A stretch of 49,982 nucleotides of DNA, from IMG/VR virus record IMGVR_UViG_2588253749_000002. One strand, given 5' to 3'. Position numbers and translations under genes: made by a program. Positions 1,866 through 47,674 of this stretch are shown here, in pieces. The notes under the pieces were generated by a model that had not been told where the DNA came from, did not search any database, and saw only the letters and a list, made by a program, of their open reading frames with translations. How positions within the stretch are numbered: the first letter of the stretch is position 1; every line of letters starts with the position of its first letter. The stretch comes from a virus. Lineage: Duplodnaviria > Heunggongvirae > Uroviricota > Caudoviricetes.

Positions 1866-2657
1866 GTTTCACACACGTTAAGATTAACAGTGTTTTTACA
1901 TGCTTTGGAAGATTTATTTTATAAAAACTCTTTTAATACAAATAGATATAATAGTTCACTATTATAGCTCCTTTAATCGAGGCGGTTCTGGTAGAGGCAT
2001 CCAGTGGGTTACACCGCCAATTGGCTCATCGTCGTCGTACTCCAATGCGGCTATATAGAACCCGTCACGACGAGAATAAGAAATCCCGGACATTACAATG
2101 CCATCCGAAACAACAATAATGTCACCCGTTTCTTTCGGCATTCGCTCACTACAGCTTATCCAACCATCCGGAGTCACCGGAAGCGAGAACGGCAGCACAT
2201 CTCTGTGAACAAGTTTTTGCTGTGACAGGTTATCCAGAACTTTCTGTACTGCTGCATCACCGAATACACCAAGCGCATCTGCCATAACTCCTACAACCTG
2301 ATAAGCCTCAGCGCATACCGTGGATAAACCATCCGGAATTACCGGAGAGTTGCCGGGTTCTTTAATGTGCAAGCGAGGCTCACCATCTTTTGGTTCAGGC
2401 CACTGGCGCTCCATGTTGATCTTCAATTTATCTTCCATAGCAGCGGTAATTTCAGCATCGCTGATGCCAGCACGGCGCTGTGCATCCCACAACAGGAAAT
2501 GCATATCAGCCCACTCGCTGAGATCGTCTGGTTCGGCTGCGGCTTCCAGAGCCTCTTTTGAGAGGTGTTTCAGTGGACCAATGGGGCCAACGCAGCCAAA
2601 TGTGGAGTCAGACCATTTGGCATGCTCGTGGCGAATCAGTTCGCGTTCCAGTGATGC

Positions 2658-4665
<2,008 letters not shown>

Positions 4666-4714
4666 TCAAGCGGATTTTTAATGAACAATTCAATACGTTC
4701 TTTGGTAATAGTGG

Positions 4715-4924
4715 TCATGTGTTAATCCTCAAAACTTTATGCCCGGGCGCAAAAGTACGTGTTTTGTCTTTGCTTATTCGCCACCCGTCTTTACGGGCCT
4801 CTTTTGCACAACCAGACCATGACGTACCGATATACTCACCGAAGTCTGGCACTGGATATACACCTTCCGTACACTGGCGACAATCACAATAGAGATGCAT
4901 GGTGTAACTTGCAGCGATAGCCAT
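4715..4924 (-). CDS. Hypothetical Cys-rich small protein
   Basis: 69-aa ORF; AAGGAG-like RBS upstream; stop overlaps start of the DUF550 gene (ATGA). Confidence 0.5.
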   Translation of the reverse strand: MAIAASYTMHLYCDCRQCTEGVYPVPDFGEYIGTSWSGCAKEARKDGWRISKDKTRTFAPGHKVLRINT

Positions 4925-4925
4925 A

Positions 4926-5114
4926 TCACTCTCCTTTAGTCCGCAAGTAGTTTTTCCAGCGGTTTTGCGCCGCGCTGGGCTTTTTGCAACAACTGTGACC
5001 CATCACCCCGCAACACCCCATCAACCTCACTCGTCTGTTACTAATCCTCACCCATCGCCAGACCCCAACACCGTTTCTGCGAGCTAACAGAATCTTTGCT
5101 TTACGGTTTTTCAT
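4926..5114 (-). CDS. Hypothetical basic small protein with CC...CC motif
   Basis: 62-aa ORF with AGGAGAG RBS 7 nt upstream of ATG; tightly packed against the next gene; no homology recognised. Confidence 0.3.
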   Translation of the reverse strand: MKNRKAKILLARRNGVGVWRWVRISNRRVRLMGCCGVMGHSCCKKPSAAQNRWKNYLRTKGE

Positions 5115-5286
5115 CGTTTTGCTCTCCTGCGTCTCTTTGCTGCTCGTCGTGCCGCTGCAATACCGGTATGGCGGCGCTTTGGTGCCGGGATGATGTTGTC
5201 AGTCATCAGGACATGTGGCTTTGCAATTAGCGCAGAAGCCCAAAAACGAGTCGGGTACGGTAACAAGCCGATACATGCCACACGCA

Positions 5287-5976
5287 CTACTCACCTCCGT
5301 TGATGCGAATGCCAGCGGCACGGGAATCATTCCATCGCTTTACTTCTTCACGAATTACGTCAATGCATTCTTTCGAATCCATTAGGTAATCTTCATCAAA
5401 AAGCCTTTCCTGTTCGTTTTCTATCGCAACAATGATTGCTTCAACTAACTTTTGTGCCTGAGAACCACTTTCTAACTCTGCAATGCGCTTCTCTGCGGCT
5501 TCCAGCTTCTCGCGCATATCGTCAACGTACTCGACCAGAGAACCGCCAGCAGGAATTTCGCACTCCTCGACCGGTTGGAAGTAGATATCAGCTGCGGCCC
5601 GTGTGTTGCTATGCCTAGCGTCGCCCATCTCACCTTCACGAAGAGCATCGCGTTCGGCGGTAAGATTGGCTATTTTGCTGTCTTTGCCTTCCAGCTCAAC
5701 GCGCAGCCTCCCAACCGTAAGCGCAATATCCTCGTTCTCCTGGTCGCGTGATTTGATGTGTTGCTGGTTTCTTTCCCGTTCATCCAGCAGCGCCAGCACG
5801 GTTTCTGGTCCAGTCAGAAATTTGAAGGCGTTGAGCGCATTAATATCCACACCGTAATCTTTAAGTTCCTGTTCGCTTATCAGATCATCATCAACTGGCA
5901 ACATTAACAGGCGTTCCATTGCCGGAATTGCACGCTCTGCCGCTTCACGCAGTGCCTGATAGTTAATTTCGCTCAC
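5287..5976 (-). CDS. Ea22-like early protein
   Basis: 229-aa acidic coiled-coil ORF (MSEINYQALREAAERA...) resembling the ead/Ea22 family of lambdoid phages. Confidence 0.7.
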   Translation of the reverse strand: MSEINYQALREAAERAIPAMERLLMLPVDDDLISEQELKDYGVDINALNAFKFLTGPETVLALLDERERNQQHIKSRDQENEDIALTVGRLRVELEGKDSKIANLTAERDALREGEMGDARHSNTRAAADIYFQPVEECEIPAGGSLVEYVDDMREKLEAAEKRIAELESGSQAQKLVEAIIVAIENEQERLFDEDYLMDSKECIDVIREEVKRWNDSRAAGIRINGGE

Positions 5977-6194
5977 TTCGAACCTCTCTGTTTACTGATA
6001 AGCTCCAGATCCTCCTGGCAACTTGCACAAGTCCGACAACCCTGAACGACCAGGCGTCTTCGTTCATCTATGGGATCGCCACACTCACAACAATGAGTGG
6101 CGGATATAGTCTGGTAGTTCAGACGACGCATTTTTATTGCTGTATTGCGCTGTAATTCTTCAATTTCTGATGCTGAATCAATGATGTTCGCCAT
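5973..6194 (-). CDS. TraR/DksA-family C4 zinc-finger protein
   Basis: 73-aa ORF with CxxC...CxxC (CCECGDPIDERRRLVVQGCRTCASC). Confidence 0.75.
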   Translation of the reverse strand: MANIIDSASEIEELQRNTAIKMRRLNYQTISATHCCECGDPIDERRRLVVQGCRTCASCQEDLELISKQRGSK

Positions 6195-6508: not shown

Positions 6509-6584
6509 TGAACAAGCCCCATGTCGGCAAGCATAAGCACACAGAATATGAAGCCCGCTGCCAGAAAAATGCATTCAGTGGTTG

Positions 6585-12220: not shown

Positions 12221-12919
12221 AAAACATCGCCGCACAGATGGTTAACTTTGACCGTGAGCAGATGCGTCGGATCGCCAACAACATGCCGGAAACAGTACGA
12301 CGAAAAGCCGCAGGTACAGCAGGTAGCGCAGATCATCAACGGTGTGTTCAGCCAGTTACTGGCAACTTTCCCGGCGAGCCTGGCTAACCGTGACCAGAAT
12401 GAACTGAACGAAATCCGCCGCCAGTGGGTGCTGGCTTTTCGGGAAAACGGGATCACCACAATGGAACAGGTTAACGCTGGAATGCGCGTAGCCCGTCGGC
12501 AGAATCGACCATTCCTGCCATCACCCGGGCAGTTTGTCGCCTGGTGCCGGGAAGAAGCATCCGTTACCGCCGGGCTGCCAAACGCCAGCGAGCTGGTTGA
12601 TATGGTTTACGAGTATTGCCGGACGCGCGGGCTGTATCCGGATGCAGAGTCTTATCCGTGGAAATCAAACGCGCACTACTGGCTGGTTACCAACCTGTAT
12701 CAGAACATGCGGGCCAATGCGTTGACTGACGCGGAATTACGGCGCAAGGCTGCCGATGAACTGTCCTGTATGACCGCACGAATTAACCGTGGTGAGGCTA
12801 TACCTGAACCAGTAAAACAACTTCCTGTCATGGGCGGTAGACCTCTAAATCGTGCACAGGCTCTGGCGAAGATCGCAGAAATCAAAGCTAAGTTTGGGCT
12901 GAAAGGAGCAAGGGTATGA
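12217..12919 (+). pseudogene. P: Replication protein P, frameshifted
   Basis: ATG 12217 gives MKNIAAQMVNFDREQMRRIANNMPE, then the frame runs to a stop at 12385-12387; the rest of P continues in the +1 frame to 12919; consistent with one extra A in the run at 12290-12292. Confidence 0.8.
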
Positions 12920-13230
12920 CGGGCAAAGAGGCAATTATTCATTACCTGGGGACTCATAAGAAATTCTGTGCGCAGGACGTTGCCGCGGTAACAGGCGCAA
13001 CGGTAACCAGCATAAATCAGGCTGCGGCTAAAATGGCACGGGCAGGTCTTCTGGCTATCGAAGGTAAGGTCTGGCGAACGGTGTATTACCGGTTTGCTAC
13101 CAGAGAAAAACGGGAAGGAAAGGTGAGCACGAATCTGATTTTTAAGGAGTGTCGCCAGAGTGCCGCGATGAAACGGGTATTGAGGGTATTGGATTTGCCC
13201 CTATATTTCCAGACATCTGTTATCACTTAA
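12916..13230 (+). CDS. ren: Ren-like protein, 3' end altered by IS2 insertion
   Basis: First 90 or so aa match lambda Ren; reading frame enters the IS2 end at 13190. Confidence 0.8.
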
Positions 13231-14106
13231 CCCATTACAAGCCCGCTGCCGCAGATATTCCCGTGGCGAGCGATAACCCAGCGCACTATGCGGATGCCAT
13301 TCGTTATAATGCTCGAACGCCTCTGCAAGGTTCTTTGCTGCCGTTAACCCGTCTGGTTTGGGCATGATACTGATGTAGTCACGCTTTATCGTTTTCACGA
13401 AGCTCTCTGCTATTCCGTTACTCTCCGGACTCCGCACCGCCGTGTTCTTCGGTTCAAGTCCCAACATCCGGGCGAACTGGCGTGTTTCATTAGCCCGGTA
13501 GCATGAACCATTATCCGTCAGCCACTCCACTGGAGACGACGGAAGATCGTTGCCGAAGCGGCGTTCCACCGCTCCCAGCATGACGTCCTGTACTGTTTCA
13601 CTGTTGAAGCCGCCGGTAGTCACCGCCCAGTGCAGTGCCTCACGATCACAGCAGTCCAGCGCGAACGTGACACGCAGTCTCTCTCCGTTATCACAGCAGA
13701 ACTCGAACCCGTCAGAGCACCATCGCTGATTGCTTTCTTTCACGGCCACTCTGCCTGTATGTGCCCGTTTCGATGGCGGTACAGCAGGTTTTCGCTCAAG
13801 CAACAGCGCATTCTGGCGCATGATCCGGTAAACACGTTTGGCATTGATCGCAGGCATACCATCAAGTTCTGCCTGTCTGCGAAGCAGCGCCCATACCCGA
13901 CGATAACCATACGTGGGCAGCTCTCCGATAACATGGTGTATACGGAGAAGCACATCCGTATCATCAGTGTGACGACTGCGGCGGCCATCCATCCAGTCAT
14001 CGGTTCGTCTGAGAATGACGTGCAACTGCGCACGCGACACCCGGAGACAACGGCTGACTAAGCTTACTCCCCATCCCCGGGCAATAAGGGCGCGTGCGCT
14101 ATCCAC
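13201..14106 (-). CDS. insD: IS2 transposase OrfB (InsD)
   Basis: 301-aa DDE transposase ORF overlapping insC. Confidence 0.9.
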
Positions 14107-14429
14107 TTTTTTGCCCGTCCATATTCAACGGCTTCTTTGAGGAGTTCATTTTCCATCGTTTTCTTGCCGAGCAGGCGCTGGAGTTCTTTAATCTGCTTCA
14201 TGGCGGCAGCAAGTTCAGAGGCAGGAACAACCTGTTCTCCGGCGGCGACAGCAGTAAGACTTCCTTCCTGGTATTGCTTACGCCAGAGAAATAACTGGCT
14301 GGCTGCTACACCATGTTGCCGGGCAACGAGGGAGACCGTCATCCCCGGTTCAAAGCTCTGCTGAACAATTGCGATCTTTTCCTGTGTGGTACGCCGTCTG
14401 CGTTTCTCCGGCCCTAAGACATCAATCAT
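14064..14429 (-). CDS. insC: IS2 transposase OrfA (InsC)
   Basis: 121 aa from [14 protein letters not shown]... Confidence 0.9.
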
Positions 14430-14621
14430 CTGTTCTCCAATGACTAGTCTAAAAACTAGTATTAAGACTATCACTTATTTAAGTGATACTGGTTGTCTGG
14501 AGATTCAGGGGGCCAGTCTAGGTATATAAAAGAACATCAATGGGTACACAATGATGAAACAGGTGAGTTGAGTTCAAACTGTAGTACAATTCTCTCCAGT
14601 TTGAACAGGAAAGAATATTCT

Positions 14622-15210: not shown

Positions 15211-16737
15211 ATGAAAAAAGCCATAGCATATATGCGATTTTCATCACCAGGTCAGATGTCTGGCGACTCATTAAACCGACAGAGAAGACTTATTGCTGAA
15301 TGGTTAAAGGTAAATAGTGATTATTATCTTGATACCATAACATATGAAGATTTAGGATTAAGTGCATTCAAAGGAAAGCATGCACAATCAGGAGCTTTTT
15401 CGGAATTTTTAGATGCTATAGAGCATGGTTATATATTGCCAGGAACTACATTGTTAGTTGAAAGTCTGGACAGACTTTCAAGAGAAAAAGTCGGTGAAGC
15501 GATTGAACGTCTGAAATTGATTTTGAATCACGGTATTGATGTTATAACTCTTTGCGACAATACAGTCTATAATATTGACTCTTTGAATGAGCCATATTCA
15601 TTAATAAAAGCCATACTTATAGCACAAAGGGCAAATGAAGAAAGCGAGATAAAGTCAAGTCGGGTTAAATTATCATGGAAGAAAAAACGGCAGGATGCAC
15701 TGGAGTCAGGCACGATTATGACGGCGTCTTGTCCGAGATGGCTCTCATTGGATGACAAAAGAACAGCTTTTATTCCAGACCCCGACAGGGTGAAAACGAT
15801 TGAGCTAATTTTTAAACTCAGGATGGAAAGGCGATCATTGAATGCAATAGCCAAGTATTTAAATGATCATGCTGTAAAAAATTTCTCAGGAAAAGAAAGT
15901 GCATGGGGGCCTTCTGTAATTGAAAAATTATTAGCGAATAAAGCTCTGATAGGTATATGCGTACCTTCATATCGTGCAAGAGGTAAAGGAATAAGTGAAA
16001 TCGCTGGCTATTATCCCAGAGTCATATCAGATGATTTGTTTTACGCTGTGCAGGAAATTCGATTGGCACCTTTTGGTATTAGCAATAGTAGCAAAAATCC
16101 TATGTTGATAAATCTACTTCGAACAGTTATGAAGTGCGAGGCTTGTGGTAATACCATGATTGTTCATGCGGTATCTGGAAGTTTGCATGGCTATTATGTT
16201 TGTCCGATGAGAAGACTGCATCGATGTGACAGGCCATCAATAAAGAGAGATTTGGTTGATTATAATATCATTAATGAGTTGCTTTTTAATTGTAGTAAAA
16301 TCCAACCAGTTGAAAACAAGAAAGATGCTAATGAAACTTTAGAGTTGAAAATTATTGAGCTCCAGATGAAAATTAATAATTTAATTGCTGCATTATCTGT
16401 TGCGCCTGAAGTTACCGCTATAGCAGAAAAAATCAGAGTATTAGATAAGGAATTACGAAGGGCTTCTGTATCATTAAAAACTTTGAAGAGTAAAGCGGTG
16501 AGCTCACTTGGTGATTTTCATGCTATTGACTTAACCAGTAAAAATGGGCGAGAGCTATGTCGTACACTTGCCTATAAAACATTCGAAAAAATCATAATCA
16601 ATACAGATAATAAAACCTGTGATATCTATTTTATGAATGGCATTGTTTTTAAACACTATCCTTTAATGAAAACAATATCCGCCCAGCAGGCGATAAGTAC
16701 TCTCAAATATATGGTTGATGGTGAGGTTTATTTTTGA
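15211..16737 (+). CDS. ybcK: Large serine recombinase (YbcK-like)
   Basis: 508 aa; N-terminal resolvase-type domain with candidate Ser in YMRFSSPGQ, Cys-rich zinc-ribbon segment and C-terminal coiled coil; AT-rich. Confidence 0.85.
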   Translation: MKKAIAYMRFSSPGQMSGDSLNRQRRLIAEWLKVNSDYYLDTITYEDLGLSAFKGKHAQSGAFSEFLDAIEHGYILPGTTLLVESLDRLSREKVGEAIERLKLILNHGIDVITLCDNTVYNIDSLNEPYSLIKAILIAQRANEESEIKSSRVKLSWKKKRQDALESGTIMTASCPRWLSLDDKRTAFIPDPDRVKTIELIFKLRMERRSLNAIAKYLNDHAVKNFSGKESAWGPSVIEKLLANKALIGICVPSYRARGKGISEIAGYYPRVISDDLFYAVQEIRLAPFGISNSSKNPMLINLLRTVMKCEACGNTMIVHAVSGSLHGYYVCPMRRLHRCDRPSIKRDLVDYNIINELLFNCSKIQPVENKKDANETLELKIIELQMKINNLIAALSVAPEVTAIAEKIRVLDKELRRASVSLKTLKSKAVSSLGDFHAIDLTSKNGRELCRTLAYKTFEKIIINTDNKTCDIYFMNGIVFKHYPLMKTISAQQAISTLKYMVDGEVYF

Positions 16738-16848
16738 GTAATAATCACTTTTTCAACCGTGCTATAGTAAGAAAGTTAGGGAAGTACAATAAAATTATCT
16801 ATCCTGAACGAAGCGTCCTGAGCTATGGTTTTACTATAGGGACTGCCA

Positions 16849-17172
16849 ATGGATGCTGGCGTTCTCGTTCTAGCAGTTCAACAATTCCCAATCACAAAAC
16901 AATTCACTGATAACGAACTTTGCACACTCGCCTGGTTATGGCGAGCAGGGGATGCGATGTTAACCGCCTGCCAGAACGTTACTCCCCTTCTTCAGGTTGC
17001 GGAGCATCGTGAAGCTGGTCGCTTCACTTCCATCGAGCAAGAATATTCCCAGATACTCACCAGAGCGCGAGCAATCCTCGCCAGAGAAACGGCACATGTA
17101 AAATTCCAGCCGTGGCTGGATGATAAGTGGAGTCGAGTGTTACCATATTTCCGTCAGAATCTGTTGCAATAA
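16849..17172 (+). CDS. Hypothetical protein
   Basis: 107-aa ORF followed by a clear terminator. Confidence 0.45.
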   Translation: MDAGVLVLAVQQFPITKQFTDNELCTLAWLWRAGDAMLTACQNVTPLLQVAEHREAGRFTSIEQEYSQILTRARAILARETAHVKFQPWLDDKWSRVLPYFRQNLLQ

Positions 17173-17192
17173 AGTCACTGGTTAGAAATACT

Positions 17193-17230
17193 GCCAGCAT
17201 TCTACGATGACGGAAGTGCTGGCATTTTTT
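17193..17230 (+). terminator. Rho-independent terminator
   Basis: GCCAGCA...TGCTGGC hairpin followed by ATTTTTT. Confidence 0.5.
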
Positions 17231-17410
17231 GGGGTAATGTGCGAGTCCATTTCATAAAATACGGGTGCTGTAAACTGGACGAAATAATCTAAAAGACACC
17301 ATTACCAGTAGCATTCAAATCGCTATGTGCCGATACGGATAAAATTATATTGATTGTTCACATACCTTATTGGATATTACTGAGGGGTATTTATATAAGG
17401 TGTAACGATA

Positions 17411-17917
17411 ATGTGGAACTTTGACAGTGCCGACTTAAGTGCAATAGCAGCAGGCATTTCTGCGTTTGGCACATTAGCCGCAGCGGGGTCGGCGCTTGCA
17501 AGTTGGTACACGTCAAAAAAAGCGCTGCAGCTACAAAATAGAGTTTACCTTTATGAGTCTTTAAAGGCTTGCGCTGAGAGAGCCAATACATCAGCTAAAG
17601 ATAAGCGCGGATCTGAATGGAGCGTTAATGATGCAGCGGATATCATCAGGTGCCTGGTACGGGCGATGGAGATCATCAAGCAGGATAGCCAGCAGAAAGA
17701 AGGTAATCAGGCATTAATGTTGAAACAGTACTTTGTTAATCTGCTAATAATGGAACTGTACGAGGAAGTTCATAACGGTGATGTGGCTGATTCTGTTTTT
17801 AAAAGTACGGAACCTACACAAGTACTTGATAATTTATGGAACAAATGGCAGGAGGCTATAGCTTTTTTTGATATTTGGAATTACCCAGTTGTGACTGAGG
17901 AAGACTTGGCAGACTAA
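17411..17917 (+). CDS. Hypothetical membrane-anchored protein
   Basis: 168 aa; N-terminal hydrophobic helix (LSAIAAGISAFGTLAAAGSALASWY); own AT-rich upstream region and RBS. Confidence 0.5.
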   Translation: MWNFDSADLSAIAAGISAFGTLAAAGSALASWYTSKKALQLQNRVYLYESLKACAERANTSAKDKRGSEWSVNDAADIIRCLVRAMEIIKQDSQQKEGNQALMLKQYFVNLLIMELYEEVHNGDVADSVFKSTEPTQVLDNLWNKWQEAIAFFDIWNYPVVTEEDLAD

Positions 17918-18111
17918 TTTTCAGCACATTTGATTTCCCATAATCAACCAGCCATAATCATGCCATTGGAGCTTGAACAACTCCGGTGACTTCTGCGCTA
18001 AACGGGGACGTTTATGCGCACATACAATCCAAACTATCTTCTCCCTTCACAGATGCAGAAATGCACCTGCGATATCTTGCATCCAGCGTTTGATCTCTGC
18101 GGAGGTGAAGC

Positions 18112-18567
18112 GTGAACTTCCCACAAGATGGCATCAAACTGCATCGCGGTAACTTCACCGCTATCGGTCGGCAGATCCAGCCTTATCTGGAGGACGGCAA
18201 ATGCTTTCGCATGGTGCTTAAACCATGGCGCGAGAGACGCAGTCTTTCCCAGAATGCACTCAGCCACATGTGGTACAGCGAAATCAGTGAATACCTCATC
18301 AGCAGGGGTAAAACGTTCGCCACTCCAGCTTGGGTAAAAGATGCTCTCAAACACACTTATCTCGGTTATGAAACCAAAGAACTGGTTGATGTCGTAACCG
18401 GTGAAATCACCACCATTCAGTCATTACGTCATACCTCCGATCTCGATACCGGAGAGATGTATGTCTTCCTGTGTAAGGTTGAAGCCTGGGCGATGAATAT
18501 TGGCTGCCACCTGACTATTCCGCAGAGCTGCGAGTTCCAGCTGCTGCGCGACAAGCAGGAGGCGTAA
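18112..18567 (+). CDS. ybcN: NinB/Orf-family recombination protein (YbcN-like)
   Basis: 151-aa ORF matching DLP12 YbcN. Confidence 0.8.
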
Positions 18568-20174: not shown

Positions 20175-21257
20175 TTAGAACTGGTAAACCATACCTACAG
20201 CAACGATATCATCGGTAGCAACGCCAGATGCTTTCGTGAAATCGCTCTTATCAATCAGGTTGATTTTGTAGTCAACAAAAGTGGACATATTTTTGTTGAA
20301 GTAATAGGTTGCACCTACATCAACATATTCAACCAGGTCCTGATCACCCCAAACACCCAAGTCTTTTCCTTTAGAATGCAGGTAAGCAACGGATGGACGC
20401 AGGCCGAAGTCGAACTGATATTGTGCAACAGCTTCGAAGTTTTGTGCTTTGTTGGCAATATGGTTATTACCAAAAACAGTCATGTTCTGGGTTTCAGAAT
20501 AGGTGGTGGCCAGATAGATGTTGTTCGCATCATATTTCAGACCAGCTGCCCATACTTCAGCATTTTGACCAGAAGCATTCAGACCGTTGTTACCGTAGAT
20601 AACCTGATTATTAGTGCGATCAGATTTAGCATAGGTTGCACCTACACCGAATCCTTCATACTCATAAGTAGTGGAGAAACCGAAACCATCACCATTAGCT
20701 TCAGTTACGTCAGTGCGGTCATTTTTACCCTGATACTGAGCAGCAAAGTTCAGACCATCAACCAGACCAAAGAAGTCGTTGTTACGATAAGTTGCAACAC
20801 CAGTGGTGCGACCAGTCATGAACACATCTGTTTGAGTCCAAGTGTCACCACCGAATTCTGGCAGGACGTCAGTCCACGCACCGATGTCGTATGCTACACC
20901 GTAGTTACGGCCGTAATCGATGGAGCCGTAGTCACCGAATTTCAGGCCAGCGAAGGCAAGACGGGTTTTATCTTTGGAGGAACCTTGAGATTCAGCGCGG
21001 TTGCCTTTGAATTCATATTCCCACTGACCGAAACCAGTCAGTTGATCGTTGATTTGGGTTTCACCTTTGAAGCCAAGACGGGCATAAGTAGTATCACCAT
21101 CATCTGCATCATTAGAGGAGAAGTAGTGCTTAGCATTAACTTTCCCGTACAGATCCAGCTTGTTACTGTCTTTATTATAAATTTCAGCTGCCTGAGCAGA
21201 CATCGCCATCAGTACTGATGCAGCTACAGCAGAAATTGCCACTGTTAATTTTTTCAT
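20175..21257 (-). CDS. nmpC: Outer-membrane porin, NmpC/OmpD type
   Basis: 360 aa from [23 protein letters not shown] (signal peptide), C-terminal ...VGMVYQF; opposite strand to flanking phage late genes. Confidence 0.85.
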
Positions 21258-21454
21258 CGTGAGCCCTTTTTTTGAACTATTATTAAAAAATGATGTCACT
21301 GCGCGATAAATATTCATCTAATCAATATGATTATTTCAAGATGTAAGTTTTAGTTTCTCATTTAATTTGTGAAGTAGATCTCTATTTTTATCTGAACTTT
21401 TTCTATCGAAACCTATTTATGGCTCTTATTTGAACAAAAATAAACCTATTAGCT

Positions 21455-47090: not shown

Positions 47091-47674
47091 TGGCATTCAG
47101 AATGAGTGAACAACCACGGACCATAAAAATTTATAATCTGCTGGCCGGAACTAATGAATTTATTGGTGAAGGTGACGCATATATTCCGCCTCATACAGGT
47201 CTGCCAGCAAACAGTACCGATATTGCACCGCCAGATATTCCGGCTGGCTTTGTGGCTGTTTTCAACAGTGATGAGGCATCGTGGCATCTCGTTGAAGACC
47301 ATCGGGGTAAAACCGTCTATGACGTGGCTTCCGGCGACGCGTTATTTATTTCTGAACTCGGCTCATTACCGGAAAATGTCACCTGGTTATCCCCGGAAGG
47401 GGAGTTTCAGAAGTGGAACGGCACAACCTGGGTGAAAGATGCAGAAGCAGAAAAACTGTTCCGGATCCGGGAGGCGGAAGAAACAAAAAATAGCCTGATG
47501 CAGGTAGCCAGTGAGCATATTGCGCCACTTCAGGATGCTGCAGATCTGGAAATCGCAACGGAGGGAGAAACCTCGTTGCTGGAAGCCTGGAAAAAGTATC
47601 GGGTGTTGCTGAACCGTGTTGATACATCAACTGCACCTGATATTGAGTGGCCTGCTGTCCCTGTTATGGAGTAA
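47090..47674 (+). CDS. tfa: Tail fibre assembly chaperone Tfa
   Basis: 194-aa ORF immediately after stf; lambda Tfa-like. Confidence 0.85.

Follow-up and report, generated by a model that had tools for sequence, protein, structure and literature searches.

Temperate phages encode membrane superinfection-exclusion proteins, such as P22 SieA, HK97 gp15, and lactococcal Sie2009, and the defense hotspots of P2 and P4 elements have been described in detail. Superinfection-exclusion proteins are small inner-membrane products of prophage "moron" genes that block the entry of other phages (PMC10883804, PMC3594210). SNIPE is a prophage defense protein anchored in the inner membrane by its N-terminal part and facing the cytoplasm, with an experimentally established N-out orientation, and it acts at injection sites (PMC13190303). 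BstA localizes to the sites of phage DNA replication, with no membrane anchor described, and its usual site adjoins the cI repressor rather than the nin region (PMC8585504). Our literature search returned no description of the lambdoid slot analyzed here. Querying the literature with the RefSeq accessions, the PHROG number, and the names of the phages gave nothing on its genes or phages, and the supplements of DefensePredictor did not contain these accessions.

Layout of the locus

The window is the whole stretch of DNA analyzed, 49,982 nucleotides long. Two open reading frames (ORF1 and ORF2) and the hairpin between them belong to a DLP12-like lambdoid prophage of Escherichia coli (Table 1). 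The first-pass annotation had placed these ORFs, of 107 and 168 aa, between a recombinase gene and ninB, and their coordinates were confirmed (16849-17172 and 17411-17917). On the left, emrE and ybcK form a low-GC module (GC 0.36) that stands in place of the 5' half of a rha gene. An Rfam search of positions 16600-18200 gave no match, and PADLOC-DB 2.0.0 held no family matching ORF1, ORF2, or YbcK at E ≤ 1.

Table 1. Features of the slot and its flanks (positions in the window)
Feature	Position	Strand	Basis or remark
ybcK, left neighbor, large serine recombinase family	15211..16737	+	Pfam Resolvase, Recombinase, Zn_ribbon_recom; RefSeq name ybcK
Junction of ybcK flank and rha remnant	16738..16861	+	DNA alignment with PhiR26_1 and PhiR5_1; BLAST boundaries; sequence
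ORF1, 107 aa, ATG	16849..17172	+	PF10548 match; intact in the window
Intrinsic-terminator-like hairpin, 10-bp stem and T6	17192..17230	+	Fold; stem kept in 44/45 loci
Exchangeable ORF2 cassette, narrowest sense	17224..17925	+	Slot boundaries; GC; nucleotide diversity
Candidate sigma-70 promoter, TTGATT-N17-GATATT, 8/12	17350..17378	+	Read by eye from the sequence
Shine-Dalgarno-like AAGGTG, 8 nt 5' of the ORF2 start codon	17397..17402	+	Sequence
ORF2, 168 aa, ATG, phrog_1779	17411..17917	+	Rare, conserved, all-helical
Predicted single-pass anchor, ORF2 residues 9-33	17435..17509	+	Hydropathy, flank charges, AF2 model
Acidic C-terminal tail TEEDLAD, ORF2 residues 162-168	17894..17914	+	Family alignments
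Fixed right edge of the variable slot	17926..17930		BLAST boundaries in 10 loci and K-12
ylcH-like ORF of 33 aa, within the conserved right flank	18014..18115	+	RefSeq annotation
ybcN (NinB/Orf family), right neighbor	18112..18567	+	Pfam, RefSeq

ORF1 is the remnant of a rha-type gene

ORF1 is what is left, at the 3' end, of an antirepressor-like gene of the Rha/Bro type that has been truncated from the 5' side; P22_AR_C is the only domain still there. ORF1 matched Pfam P22_AR_C (PF10548) with an E value of 2.8e-16 and 59.8 bits (cut-off, 22.4), its residues 15-85 covering positions 3-73 of the 73 in the profile. The RefSeq naming agrees with this match, and among PHROGs it corresponds over its full length to phrog_7640, with weaker matches to Ant phrogs. 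Proteins of 202 and 249 aa composed of Bro-N and P22_AR_C, annotated as "Rha protein" in PhiR26_1 and PhiR5_1, are 85-88% identical in their C-terminal part to residues 5-107 of ORF1, and the full-length gene is found on the same DNA in PhiR26_1, PhiR5_1, E. coli EC6868, and O157:H7. Whereas the full-length relatives have an N-terminal Bro-N domain, ORF1 lacks any Bro-N and starts at a recombination joint. DNA alignment and BLAST boundaries identified the DNA 5' of ORF1 as ybcK flank without rha homology, and alignment to full-length rha genes placed the beginning of that homology at about 16850-16862. The start codon of ORF1, an ATG, is inside the joint, four codons 3' of an in-frame stop, with a 1-nt gap offset relative to the ancestral rha frame.

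The stub is decaying. Stop counts and dN/dS values for ORF1 were taken from a set of 45 loci, small-sample pairwise dN/dS being uninformative. Nonsense alleles were present in 11 of the 16 truncated copies and in 0 of the 29 full-length ones, and they go back to two independent mutations, E80* (7 copies) and Y100* (4 copies). RefSeq flags the copy in O104:H4 as a pseudogene, the 3' end has been overwritten by adjacent cargo in several strains, and the stub is reduced (to about 170 bp) or missing in others and wholly missing in K-12. Such losses, together with a start codon in a frame-shifted joint, argue against ORF1 being a functional stand-alone P22_AR_C protein, for instance a dominant-negative or modulatory partner of the full-length Rha/Ant-type proteins of co-resident phages. 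That idea is improbable, even though the window and 5 of the 16 truncated copies have the 107-aa form intact and this form has a PHROG of its own, is preceded by an AGGGA motif 6 nt 5' of its ATG, and occurs in phage Turner, an environmental isolate. The pairwise dN/dS of 0.17 among truncated alleles would also favor function, but this low value mostly reflects divergence built up while the segment was part of the full-length gene.

In our reading, the ancestral rha-type gene consisted of a Bro-N DNA-binding domain, a P22_AR_C domain, and an intrinsic terminator, and recombination at the boundary between the domains swapped the emrE-ybcK module in for the Bro-N half. The leftover 107-aa stub is dispensable, and its role here is solely that of the left flank of the slot. 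The first-pass annotation had taken ORF1 for uncharacterized cargo, while itself naming homology to phage regulatory proteins as a finding that would speak against this. ORF1 has such homology, and the annotation is corrected here: one of the two "unknowns" is a pseudogenizing stub, and the phage regulator gene from which it derives is known.

The hairpin that follows ORF1 has a 10-bp stem, with arms at 17192-17201 and 17215-17224, and a run of six T residues at 17225-17230; our consensus terminator scan missed it because its loop is longer than 8 nt. The stem was unchanged in 44 of the 45 related loci, changes being confined to the loop and to the T run (6-8 T), and position 17223, directly 3' of the stem, marks the slot boundary in strain E9. 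Terminators of the lambda nin region occupy a similar position. The "strong terminator" at 17193-17230 previously credited to ORF1 itself does exist as a hairpin with a T run, but it is a conserved element that belongs to the ancestral rha gene as its terminator.

A recombinational cargo slot between ren and ninB

Alternative versions of the slot, including that of K-12, share homology that resumes at 17926-17930 on the right (BLAST, 10 loci and K-12), while the left edge is variable and lies within or just 3' of the rha 3' end. Between these edges, E. coli RM9387 carries BstA (PADLOC E value, 3.6e-121; phrog "BstA abortive infection system"), located between the rha stub and ylcH; O157:H7 carries a HEPN gene with its partner; K-12 carries ybcL/ybcM; and other E. 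coli strains carry a 260-aa hypothetical protein, a 118-aa hypothetical protein, or an alpha/beta hydrolase. The ORF2 version was found in 175 of 5,426 complete E. coli genomes (about 3%), in line with the variability between prophages that had been suspected. ORF2 is present or absent between otherwise collinear prophages with common flanks, and the GC content of its cassette (17224..17925) deviates from that of the window (0.41 versus 0.51). Within the window, the cassette is not bounded by direct repeats. We conclude that the ren-ninB zone of DLP12-like lambdoid prophages is a recombinational cargo hotspot, whose cargo slot is now placed within a few bases. Two cargo genes had been counted in it; ORF2 stands as single-gene cargo, and ORF1 is the rha remnant at its flank.

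In the closest phages, PD-lambda-1/SNIPE lies just upstream of rha. In every one of the 45 E. coli-type loci, ORF2 occurs together with the C-terminal segment of rha, and its position directly 5' of NinB-type genes is kept across homologs of 44-100% identity, which is steadier than would be expected for a hyper-mobile defense cassette. Other lambdoid prophages have more distant homologs in their accessory zones, as does a P4-like island, and the neighbors of these homologs include Abi_2, a retron-type RT with SLATT_5, and an AAA_15/AAA_21 ATPase. Lambda NinA was considered as an equivalent of ORF2 and dropped, there being no NinA comparison to make since NinB directly follows ren in lambda.

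ORF2 is a rare and conserved all-helical protein

ORF2 belongs to phrog_1779, a very small family with 34 clusters among 1.84 billion proteins; a profile scan of genome contigs with a narrower ORF2 alignment added only two species, Enterobacter cloacae and Phytobacter sp. The members have a uniform length of about 155-180 aa and share one architecture in 31 of 31 aligned sequences, down to 22% identity: an N-terminal helix of marginal hydrophobicity, a domain made up entirely of helices, and an acidic tail, with the consensus TDEDLxD in most of them. Only three polar residues are near-invariant (S31, Q42, and N59). The AF2 model of ORF2 reached a pLDDT of 78.9, above 90 in the core, with residues 6-62 in one continuous helix and a folded, predicted cytoplasmic part of about 130 residues. 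ORF2 was intact in 45 of 45 loci, and its dN/dS against homologs at 52-72% identity was 0.08-0.12. Given this integrity, the low deep dN/dS, the uniform architecture, the confidently modeled core, and the low GC content, ORF2 is real cargo, a rare, conserved, all-helical protein.

Nucleotide diversity drops over ORF2 (π = 0.0058, versus 0.028-0.069 in the flanks), which indicates that a single allele has recently spread through diverged backgrounds. Alternatively, ORF2 could currently be functionless in E. coli, a passenger, hitch-hiking or selfish, that travels with the rha 3' block and spreads by recombination. Its constant linkage to the rha C-terminal segment would fit, as would the existence of one decayed copy, the homolog L066 (one stop; dN/dS, 0.76), and the recent dN/dS of ORF2 itself (0.80). 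Values of dN/dS are inflated at very low divergence, and this one is based on very few substitutions (dS, only 0.011). Moreover, ORF2 has stayed intact in every locus while the neighboring stub decays, and a deep dN/dS of about 0.1 with conservation of the architecture to 22% identity points to function. We therefore hold the passenger reading to be improbable.

Nothing specific was found for ORF2 in Pfam, NCBIfam, or PADLOC, nor in Pfam for any of the 31 family members. The same was true of a profile search of PDB sequences (best E value, 3.1) and of Foldseek searches against BFVD (best E value, 0.095) and, with a better ORF2 model, against PDB (best E value, 0.17). The earlier statement that neither ORF resembles a recognizable family thus held for ORF2, without a Pfam, PADLOC, PDB, or fold match, and failed for ORF1 with its P22_AR_C domain.

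Residues 9-33 of ORF2 form a hydrophobic helix rich in Ala, Gly, and Ser, with an acidic N-terminal and a basic C-terminal flank. By the positive-inside rule, these flanks predict an N-out/C-in topology, and insertion of ORF2 into the membrane in this orientation is likewise a prediction from its sequence. Across the 31 members, the Kyte-Doolittle mean over 19 residues of this helix was 1.5-2.5. The summed Hessa scale gave +2.7 kcal/mol for ORF2 and about -1 to +5 kcal/mol for the family. Of the single N-terminal transmembrane helix and soluble domain proposed previously, the hydrophobic helix is therefore real and family-wide, but it is marginal on the Hessa scale. This marginal insertion energy and the recent dN/dS both count against a role in defense.

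A helix of this kind might also suggest a holin-like or other lysis-timing membrane protein, since ORF2 combines a short length with one hydrophobic helix, rich in small residues, and with a charged C terminus. We consider this very improbable: the lysis genes essD/rrrD/rzpD lie several kilobases downstream, past quuD and a porin gene, a folded predicted cytoplasmic domain of that size is atypical of holins, and no holin Pfam matched ORF2 or the 31 family members.

Transcription of ORF2

ORF2 had been described as separately promoted, a description that our consensus scan for sigma-70 promoters did not bear out, with no site of at least 9/12 matches in 17231-17410. The best site found by eye (17350-17378) has 8/12 matches, which is below the scan threshold and not better than chance. 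No consistent promoter was found 5' of the ORF2 homologs in three other loci by the same kind of scan, although consensus scans cannot exclude a real promoter. Downstream, a scan of 17918-18013 gave no terminator-like site; terminators are present at some distant homologs, for instance in locus L016 at 6540-6557. ORF2 has the orientation of the early-right operon and lies behind the terminator hairpin, and the gap between the ORF2 homolog and its upstream gene is only about 80 nt in L008 and L009. Co-orientation, terminator, and short gaps fit a gene that is expressed while the phage grows lytically and not one expressed in the lysogen, and with the missing consensus promoter they count against a defense reading.

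These signals are the basis of a serious rival explanation, in which ORF2 would be a delayed-early lytic gene of the nin region, read through from pR by antitermination and acting, for example, in counter-defense, in host takeover, or as a membrane helper of replication or recombination together with NinB. With the hairpin upstream of it, ORF2 would need antitermination to be expressed. Homologs with 44-72% identity keep their place directly 5' of NinB, DUF1367, or RusA genes in phages, and ORF2 itself is found in PhiR5_1 and PhiR26_1, which were deposited as complete phage genomes with named hosts. Yet ORF2 is missing from most otherwise syntenic prophages, which have defense genes in its place; lytic growth therefore does not require it. 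Homologs in L016/L017 and L011 lie outside nin operons (int-proximal pL arm, P4-like island), and the O104:H4 prophage still has an intact ORF2 although its emrE, ybcK, rha stub, and rusA have all become pseudogenes. A lytic role is possible on this evidence, if doubtful.

A candidate role in phage-phage conflict

The sister prophages carry anti-phage defense genes in the same slot, which makes ORF2 a candidate for defense or exclusion. The superinfection exclusion or abortive infection proposed at first pass gains from the sharing of the slot with BstA and the HEPN pair; the argument is one of position, and no PADLOC, Pfam, PDB, or fold match adds to it. We regard a defense or exclusion role, drawn from location, as a tentative reading with somewhat less than even chances. 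In the mechanism that we prefer, ORF2 would be an accessory protein with which the prophage competes against other phages, on the cytoplasmic side of the inner membrane. There it could interfere with the genome entry of superinfecting phages or serve as an oligomerizing membrane effector of abortive infection. SNIPE is a precedent for a membrane-anchored prophage defense of this topology.

In a more specific and unlikelier form, phrog_1779 might be a new family of single-gene anti-phage proteins. These would be anchored N-out/C-in by an oligomerizing helix of small residues, and their cytoplasmic domain and acidic tail would sense or block a component of the incoming phage, leading to exclusion or abortive infection, with one allele recently spread by recombination among diverged lambdoid prophages of E. 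coli, those of the O104:H4 outbreak lineage included. For the account as a whole, a rha remnant flanking ORF2 as hotspot cargo with a role in phage conflict, we estimate a probability of roughly 0.4. ORF2 is a compact candidate from a slot that elsewhere holds BstA and a HEPN pair, in a family without known fold or function; should it have no phenotype, it would be just another hypothetical prophage gene.

Comparison with known systems

HEPN toxins of the MntA-HepT type were the top PDB matches of ORF2 in Foldseek, with weak scores (E values, 0.28-2; TM scores, 0.21-0.33), and a HEPN gene shares its slot position in O157:H7. As a HEPN protein ORF2 was nevertheless rejected: hhalign assigned a probability of only 0.08% to its pairing with the HEPN protein of O157, the Rx4-6H motif is not conserved, and no Pfam HEPN model matched any of the 31 members. 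The likeness is that of a generic helical bundle.

BstA, a prophage abortive infection protein with an aba self-immunity element, has a homolog in exactly the slot of ORF2 in E. coli RM9387, and the two proteins share no sequence similarity. The superinfection-exclusion proteins showed no homology to ORF2 in any search, and the predicted cytoplasmic helical domain of ORF2 is comparatively large beside theirs. Each of them is an independent expression unit of its prophage, whereas ORF2 is only a candidate for such a unit.

SNIPE, a membrane-bound nuclease that defends E. coli prophages, differs from ORF2 in size (about 500 versus 168 aa), in its DUF4041 and GIY-YIG domains, neither of which is found in ORF2, in the absence of sequence similarity between the two, and in lying on the opposite strand in those closest phages. 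Like ORF2, SNIPE (PD-lambda-1) is single-gene cargo, and it occupies the same nin-proximal accessory zone in the closest relatives of the ORF2 prophage; its topology, N-out with cytoplasmic domains, is the one predicted for ORF2.

Prophage setting

The window is a DLP12-like lambdoid prophage of Escherichia coli, with the local gene order ren, emrE, ybcK, ORF1, ORF2, a ylcH-like 33-aa ORF, ybcN (NinB/Orf family), ninE, ybcO, rusA, ylcG, and quuD, followed by a porin gene on the opposite strand and then the lysis genes. The segment around the two ORFs is identical (100% at the DNA level) to that of E. coli A34 and TW10573. At least 80% of it was present in just 175 of 5426 complete E. coli genomes and 2937 matched part of it, indicating a variable insert with conserved flanks. 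Both ORFs described in the first-pass annotation exist with the extents listed in the table.

Several features of the surroundings can be recorded here. IS2 sits in the 3' end of ren and replaces the final ~10 residues of Ren compared with strain A34, where the site is IS-free. The nmpC/OmpD-like porin gene (“porin OmpC” in A34) is unbroken in the window; the K-12 DLP12 porin gene is split by IS5. A single Rfam hit in the window, IS009, exceeded the gathering score. The outbreak-lineage prophage of O104:H4 2011C-3493 has pseudogene annotations for emrE, ybcK, the rha stub, and rusA, and it retains intact copies of the ORF2 homolog, ybcN, ninE, ybcO, and quuD.

Coordinates of features in the window and in related loci
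Feature	Locus	Coordinates	Strand	Remark
ren ORF	window	12916-13230
IS2	window	13201-14474	-	InsC/InsD-type ORFs
Variable segment	window	16700-18150
Slot left edge	window	16776 to 17223		differs among loci
ORF1	window	16849-17172	+	107 aa
Hairpin stem	window	17192-17201/17215-17224		10 bp
T run	window	17225-17230		T6
Best by-eye promoter site	window	17350-17378		8/12
ORF2	window	17411-17917	+	168 aa
Slot right edge	window	17926-17930		all variants
Promoter-like site	window	17930-17958		TTGATT-N17-CATAAT, 9/12
ylcH-upstream region	window	17954-18091
Repeat copy	L002	4200-4297
Repeat copy	L006	2699-2796
Repeat copy	L007	2659-2796
Porin gene	window	20175-21317	-
IS009 (RF02111)	window	47433-47631	+	225 bits
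BstA homolog	RM9387 (L021)	3023-3952		309 aa
P0041	L018	6001-6867		288 aa
Stretch with pseudogenes and the ORF2 homolog	O104:H4 2011C-3493 (L005)	2417-6029

ORF1 and the downstream hairpin

ORF1 had been described as resembling no recognized family, which is incorrect: it matches P22_AR_C in Pfam (E = 2.8e-16; 59.8 bits, cutoff 22.4) and is the rest of a Rha-type gene. It also gave a full-length match to phrog_7640 and weaker matches to “anti-repressor Ant” PHROGs, and its RefSeq name is “P22AR C-terminal domain-containing protein.” In PhiR26_1 and PhiR5_1, the same DNA is part of a full-length “Rha protein” gene (202 or 249 aa); behind it come the same hairpin and ~240-nt spacer as in the window, then an ORF2 homolog (96 to 98% identity) and ninB. 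Full-length Rha proteins consist of Bro-N and P22_AR_C. The homology of the window with these genes begins at ~16850 to 16862, with the ybcK flank upstream, and the ORF1 start codon lies inside this ybcK/rha joint, 4 codons past an in-frame stop, and is separated from the ancestral rha frame by a 1-nt gap. The two types of full-length rha have Bro-N halves that are ~48% identical and a common C-terminal block; the joint therefore coincides with a point of recurrent recombination between the two domains. ORF1, previously counted as cargo, and the hairpin are very probably the relic of a known regulator gene. In 4A7, Lambda_4C10, D2, 1W, 3W, and Perceval, an unannotated stretch at ~41.4 to 41.9 kb holds a 45-residue match (56%) to the N-terminal part of ORF1, which suggests another putative rha vestige near the ren/ninB junction of these lambda-like phages.

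The strong terminator proposed at 17193-17230 proved to be a real hairpin with a T run. Its stem was unaltered in 44 of 45 related loci, variation being confined to the loop and to the length of the T run (6 to 8 T). Since the loop exceeds 8 nt, a consensus terminator scanner omitted it, and the 76-nt fold containing it had a shuffle z-score of just -1.33. The hairpin is supported by its canonical form and conservation, not by energy.

ORF1 is undergoing decay. Among 45 ORF2-carrying loci (IMG/VR contigs, phage records, and genomes), 29 had a full-length rha, in all of which the shared segment was stop-free, and 16 had the ybcK-stub arrangement. Eleven of these stubs carried a nonsense mutation, at one of two codons (E80*, n = 7; Y100*, n = 4), and that of O104:H4 2011C-3493 is a RefSeq pseudogene with an internal stop. 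Neighboring cargo overwrites the final stub codons in some strains (left edge at 17154-17165), one lineage has a stub shortened to ~170 bp (edge at 17020), and in K-12 the stub is absent, homology stopping at 16776. The window's own copy is intact; a residual function of ORF1 is nonetheless very unlikely.

The cargo slot

BLAST comparison of the window with ten related loci and K-12 showed that homology restarts at the same right edge in all variants, with a left edge that differs. Between these edges, the window carries ORF2, RM9387 a BstA homolog (PADLOC E = 3.6e-121; phrog_6287 “BstA abortive infection system”), E9 a 260-aa hypothetical protein, IR53017 and phage Turner a 118-aa hypothetical protein, and K-12 ybcL and ybcM. 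The idea of a variable slot was right, and the coordinates given in the first-pass annotation were largely correct. It is ORF2 that constitutes the cargo, in a hotspot with precise boundaries (probability of roughly 90%). Lambda has NinB directly after ren, so the emrE-ybcK-stub-cargo stretch is an expansion of the ren/NinB junction.

In related phages, full-length rha is preceded by a 98- to 138-bp copy of the ylcH-upstream region (88 to 89% identity). Direct repeats therefore bracket the rha and cargo module in these loci (L002, L006, and L007), and the window keeps the right-hand copy alone. Such repeats are a likely substrate for module exchange.

ORF2 and its family

ORF2 is a genuine gene: all 45 loci have it intact, with an unchanged start and an unchanged length. 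Its dN/dS was 0.08 to 0.12 against homologs with 52 to 72% protein identity, at a dS near saturation. It is already cataloged as a RefSeq hypothetical protein and as phrog_1779 (function unknown), and a literature search found no publication on the gene. The family is small: 14 clusters in 5.8 billion proteins by word-indexed search and 34 clusters at 50% identity in 1.84 billion representatives by exhaustive profile search, with full-length members nearly all of 153 to 180 aa. A scan of species-representative genomes extended it only by Enterobacter cloacae and a Phytobacter, and ORF2 DNA was found in 180 of 5426 complete E. coli genomes, chromosomal every time. One family member, P0041, encoded past the O/P replication genes in the nin region of a lambdoid element, has an additional N-terminal extension of ~135 residues before the ORF2-like region.

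All 31 aligned members have a short acidic/aromatic N terminus, often MSWHxxDW, followed by an Ala/Gly/Ser-rich hydrophobic helix (Kyte-Doolittle 19-residue mean, 1.5 to 2.5). There is almost no K/R before the helix and 2 to 6 within the 15 residues after it; the topology predicted by the positive-inside rule is a single-pass anchor, N terminus out and the remainder in the cytoplasm. The AlphaFold2 model (31-sequence alignment; pLDDT 78.9, core mostly >88) comprises a continuous helix (6-62), a compact helical bundle (72-153), and a short C-terminal helix. Of the proposed N-terminal transmembrane helix with a soluble domain, the hydrophobic helix is real and conserved across the family; membrane insertion itself is inferred, the helix being marginal on the Hessa scale (+2.7 kcal/mol for ORF2). 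A28, S31, Q42, L51, A55, N59, W70, A85, I89, F108, L112, and W146 are near invariant, the C-terminal tail of most members is acidic, of the type TDEDLxD, and the alignment showed no conserved catalytic-looking motif. Sequence and fold searches returned no specific relative; HEPN toxins, to which Foldseek gave a weak similarity, were tested as relatives and rejected.

Distant homologs lie in temperate-phage accessory zones in every case, several immediately upstream of NinB, DUF1367, YbcO, or RusA in other lambdoid phages. One homolog was flanked by an Abi_2 gene on one side and, on the other, by DinI with a cloacin-type bacteriocin/immunity pair. Further single examples were found after a Dam-type methylase, in the int-proximal part of the pL arm close to an AAA_15/AAA_21 ATPase pair, and in a P4-like island also carrying a reverse transcriptase/SLATT_5 pair. 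No partner gene was conserved across these contexts, so ORF2 is a single-gene unit.

Nucleotide diversity across 31 distinct haplotypes was 0.069 in the rha C-terminal segment, 0.030 in the hairpin and spacer, 0.0058 in ORF2, 0.028 in the right flank, and 0.036 in ybcN, i.e., 5- to 12-fold lower in ORF2 than in either flank. Given a recent dN/dS of 0.80 and a dS of 0.011, this trough is explained by the recent ancestor that ORF2 copies on diverged backgrounds share, rather than by strong constraint on the protein, and it looks like a single allele spread lately through recombination. The GC content of the ORF2 cassette is 0.41, versus 0.51 for the window.

Expression and possible role of ORF2

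ORF2 had been described as separately promoted, for which no support was found: a consensus scan found no sigma-70 promoter between the hairpin and ORF2, and no consistent promoter was found for its homologs in three other loci, some of which have a terminator just downstream. ORF2 does have a good ribosome-binding site (AAGGTG, 8 nt upstream of the start). The only promoter-like site of the region coincides with the right edge of the slot and would point into ylcH-ybcN.

Expression is the weakest point of a defense reading, and we propose only tentatively that ORF2 acts in phage-phage conflict at the inner membrane, via exclusion or abortive infection. A role in the lytic cycle or in counter-defense ranks next, as a somewhat less probable reading. 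ORF2 has the orientation of the early-right operon and lies behind a terminator, and it could just as well be a delayed-early gene transcribed by antiterminated polymerase. Many candidates like ORF2 exist in prophage hotspots, and nothing about it is mechanistically surprising so far. The definition of the slot, the isolation of the family in sequence and fold, and the sweep-like diversity trough make it a reasonable candidate for phage challenge.

Known defense genes occur nearby in related elements. The nearest phages with a full-length rha carry PD-lambda-1 immediately upstream of it; this is SNIPE, an N-out membrane-anchored nuclease cutting phage DNA during injection (PMC13190303). BstA is a proven abortive-infection protein of prophages, usually next to the cI repressor, and its location downstream of the prophage repressor has been described as strikingly conserved (PMC8585504). 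The presence of the RM9387 homolog in the nin-region slot is noteworthy in itself.
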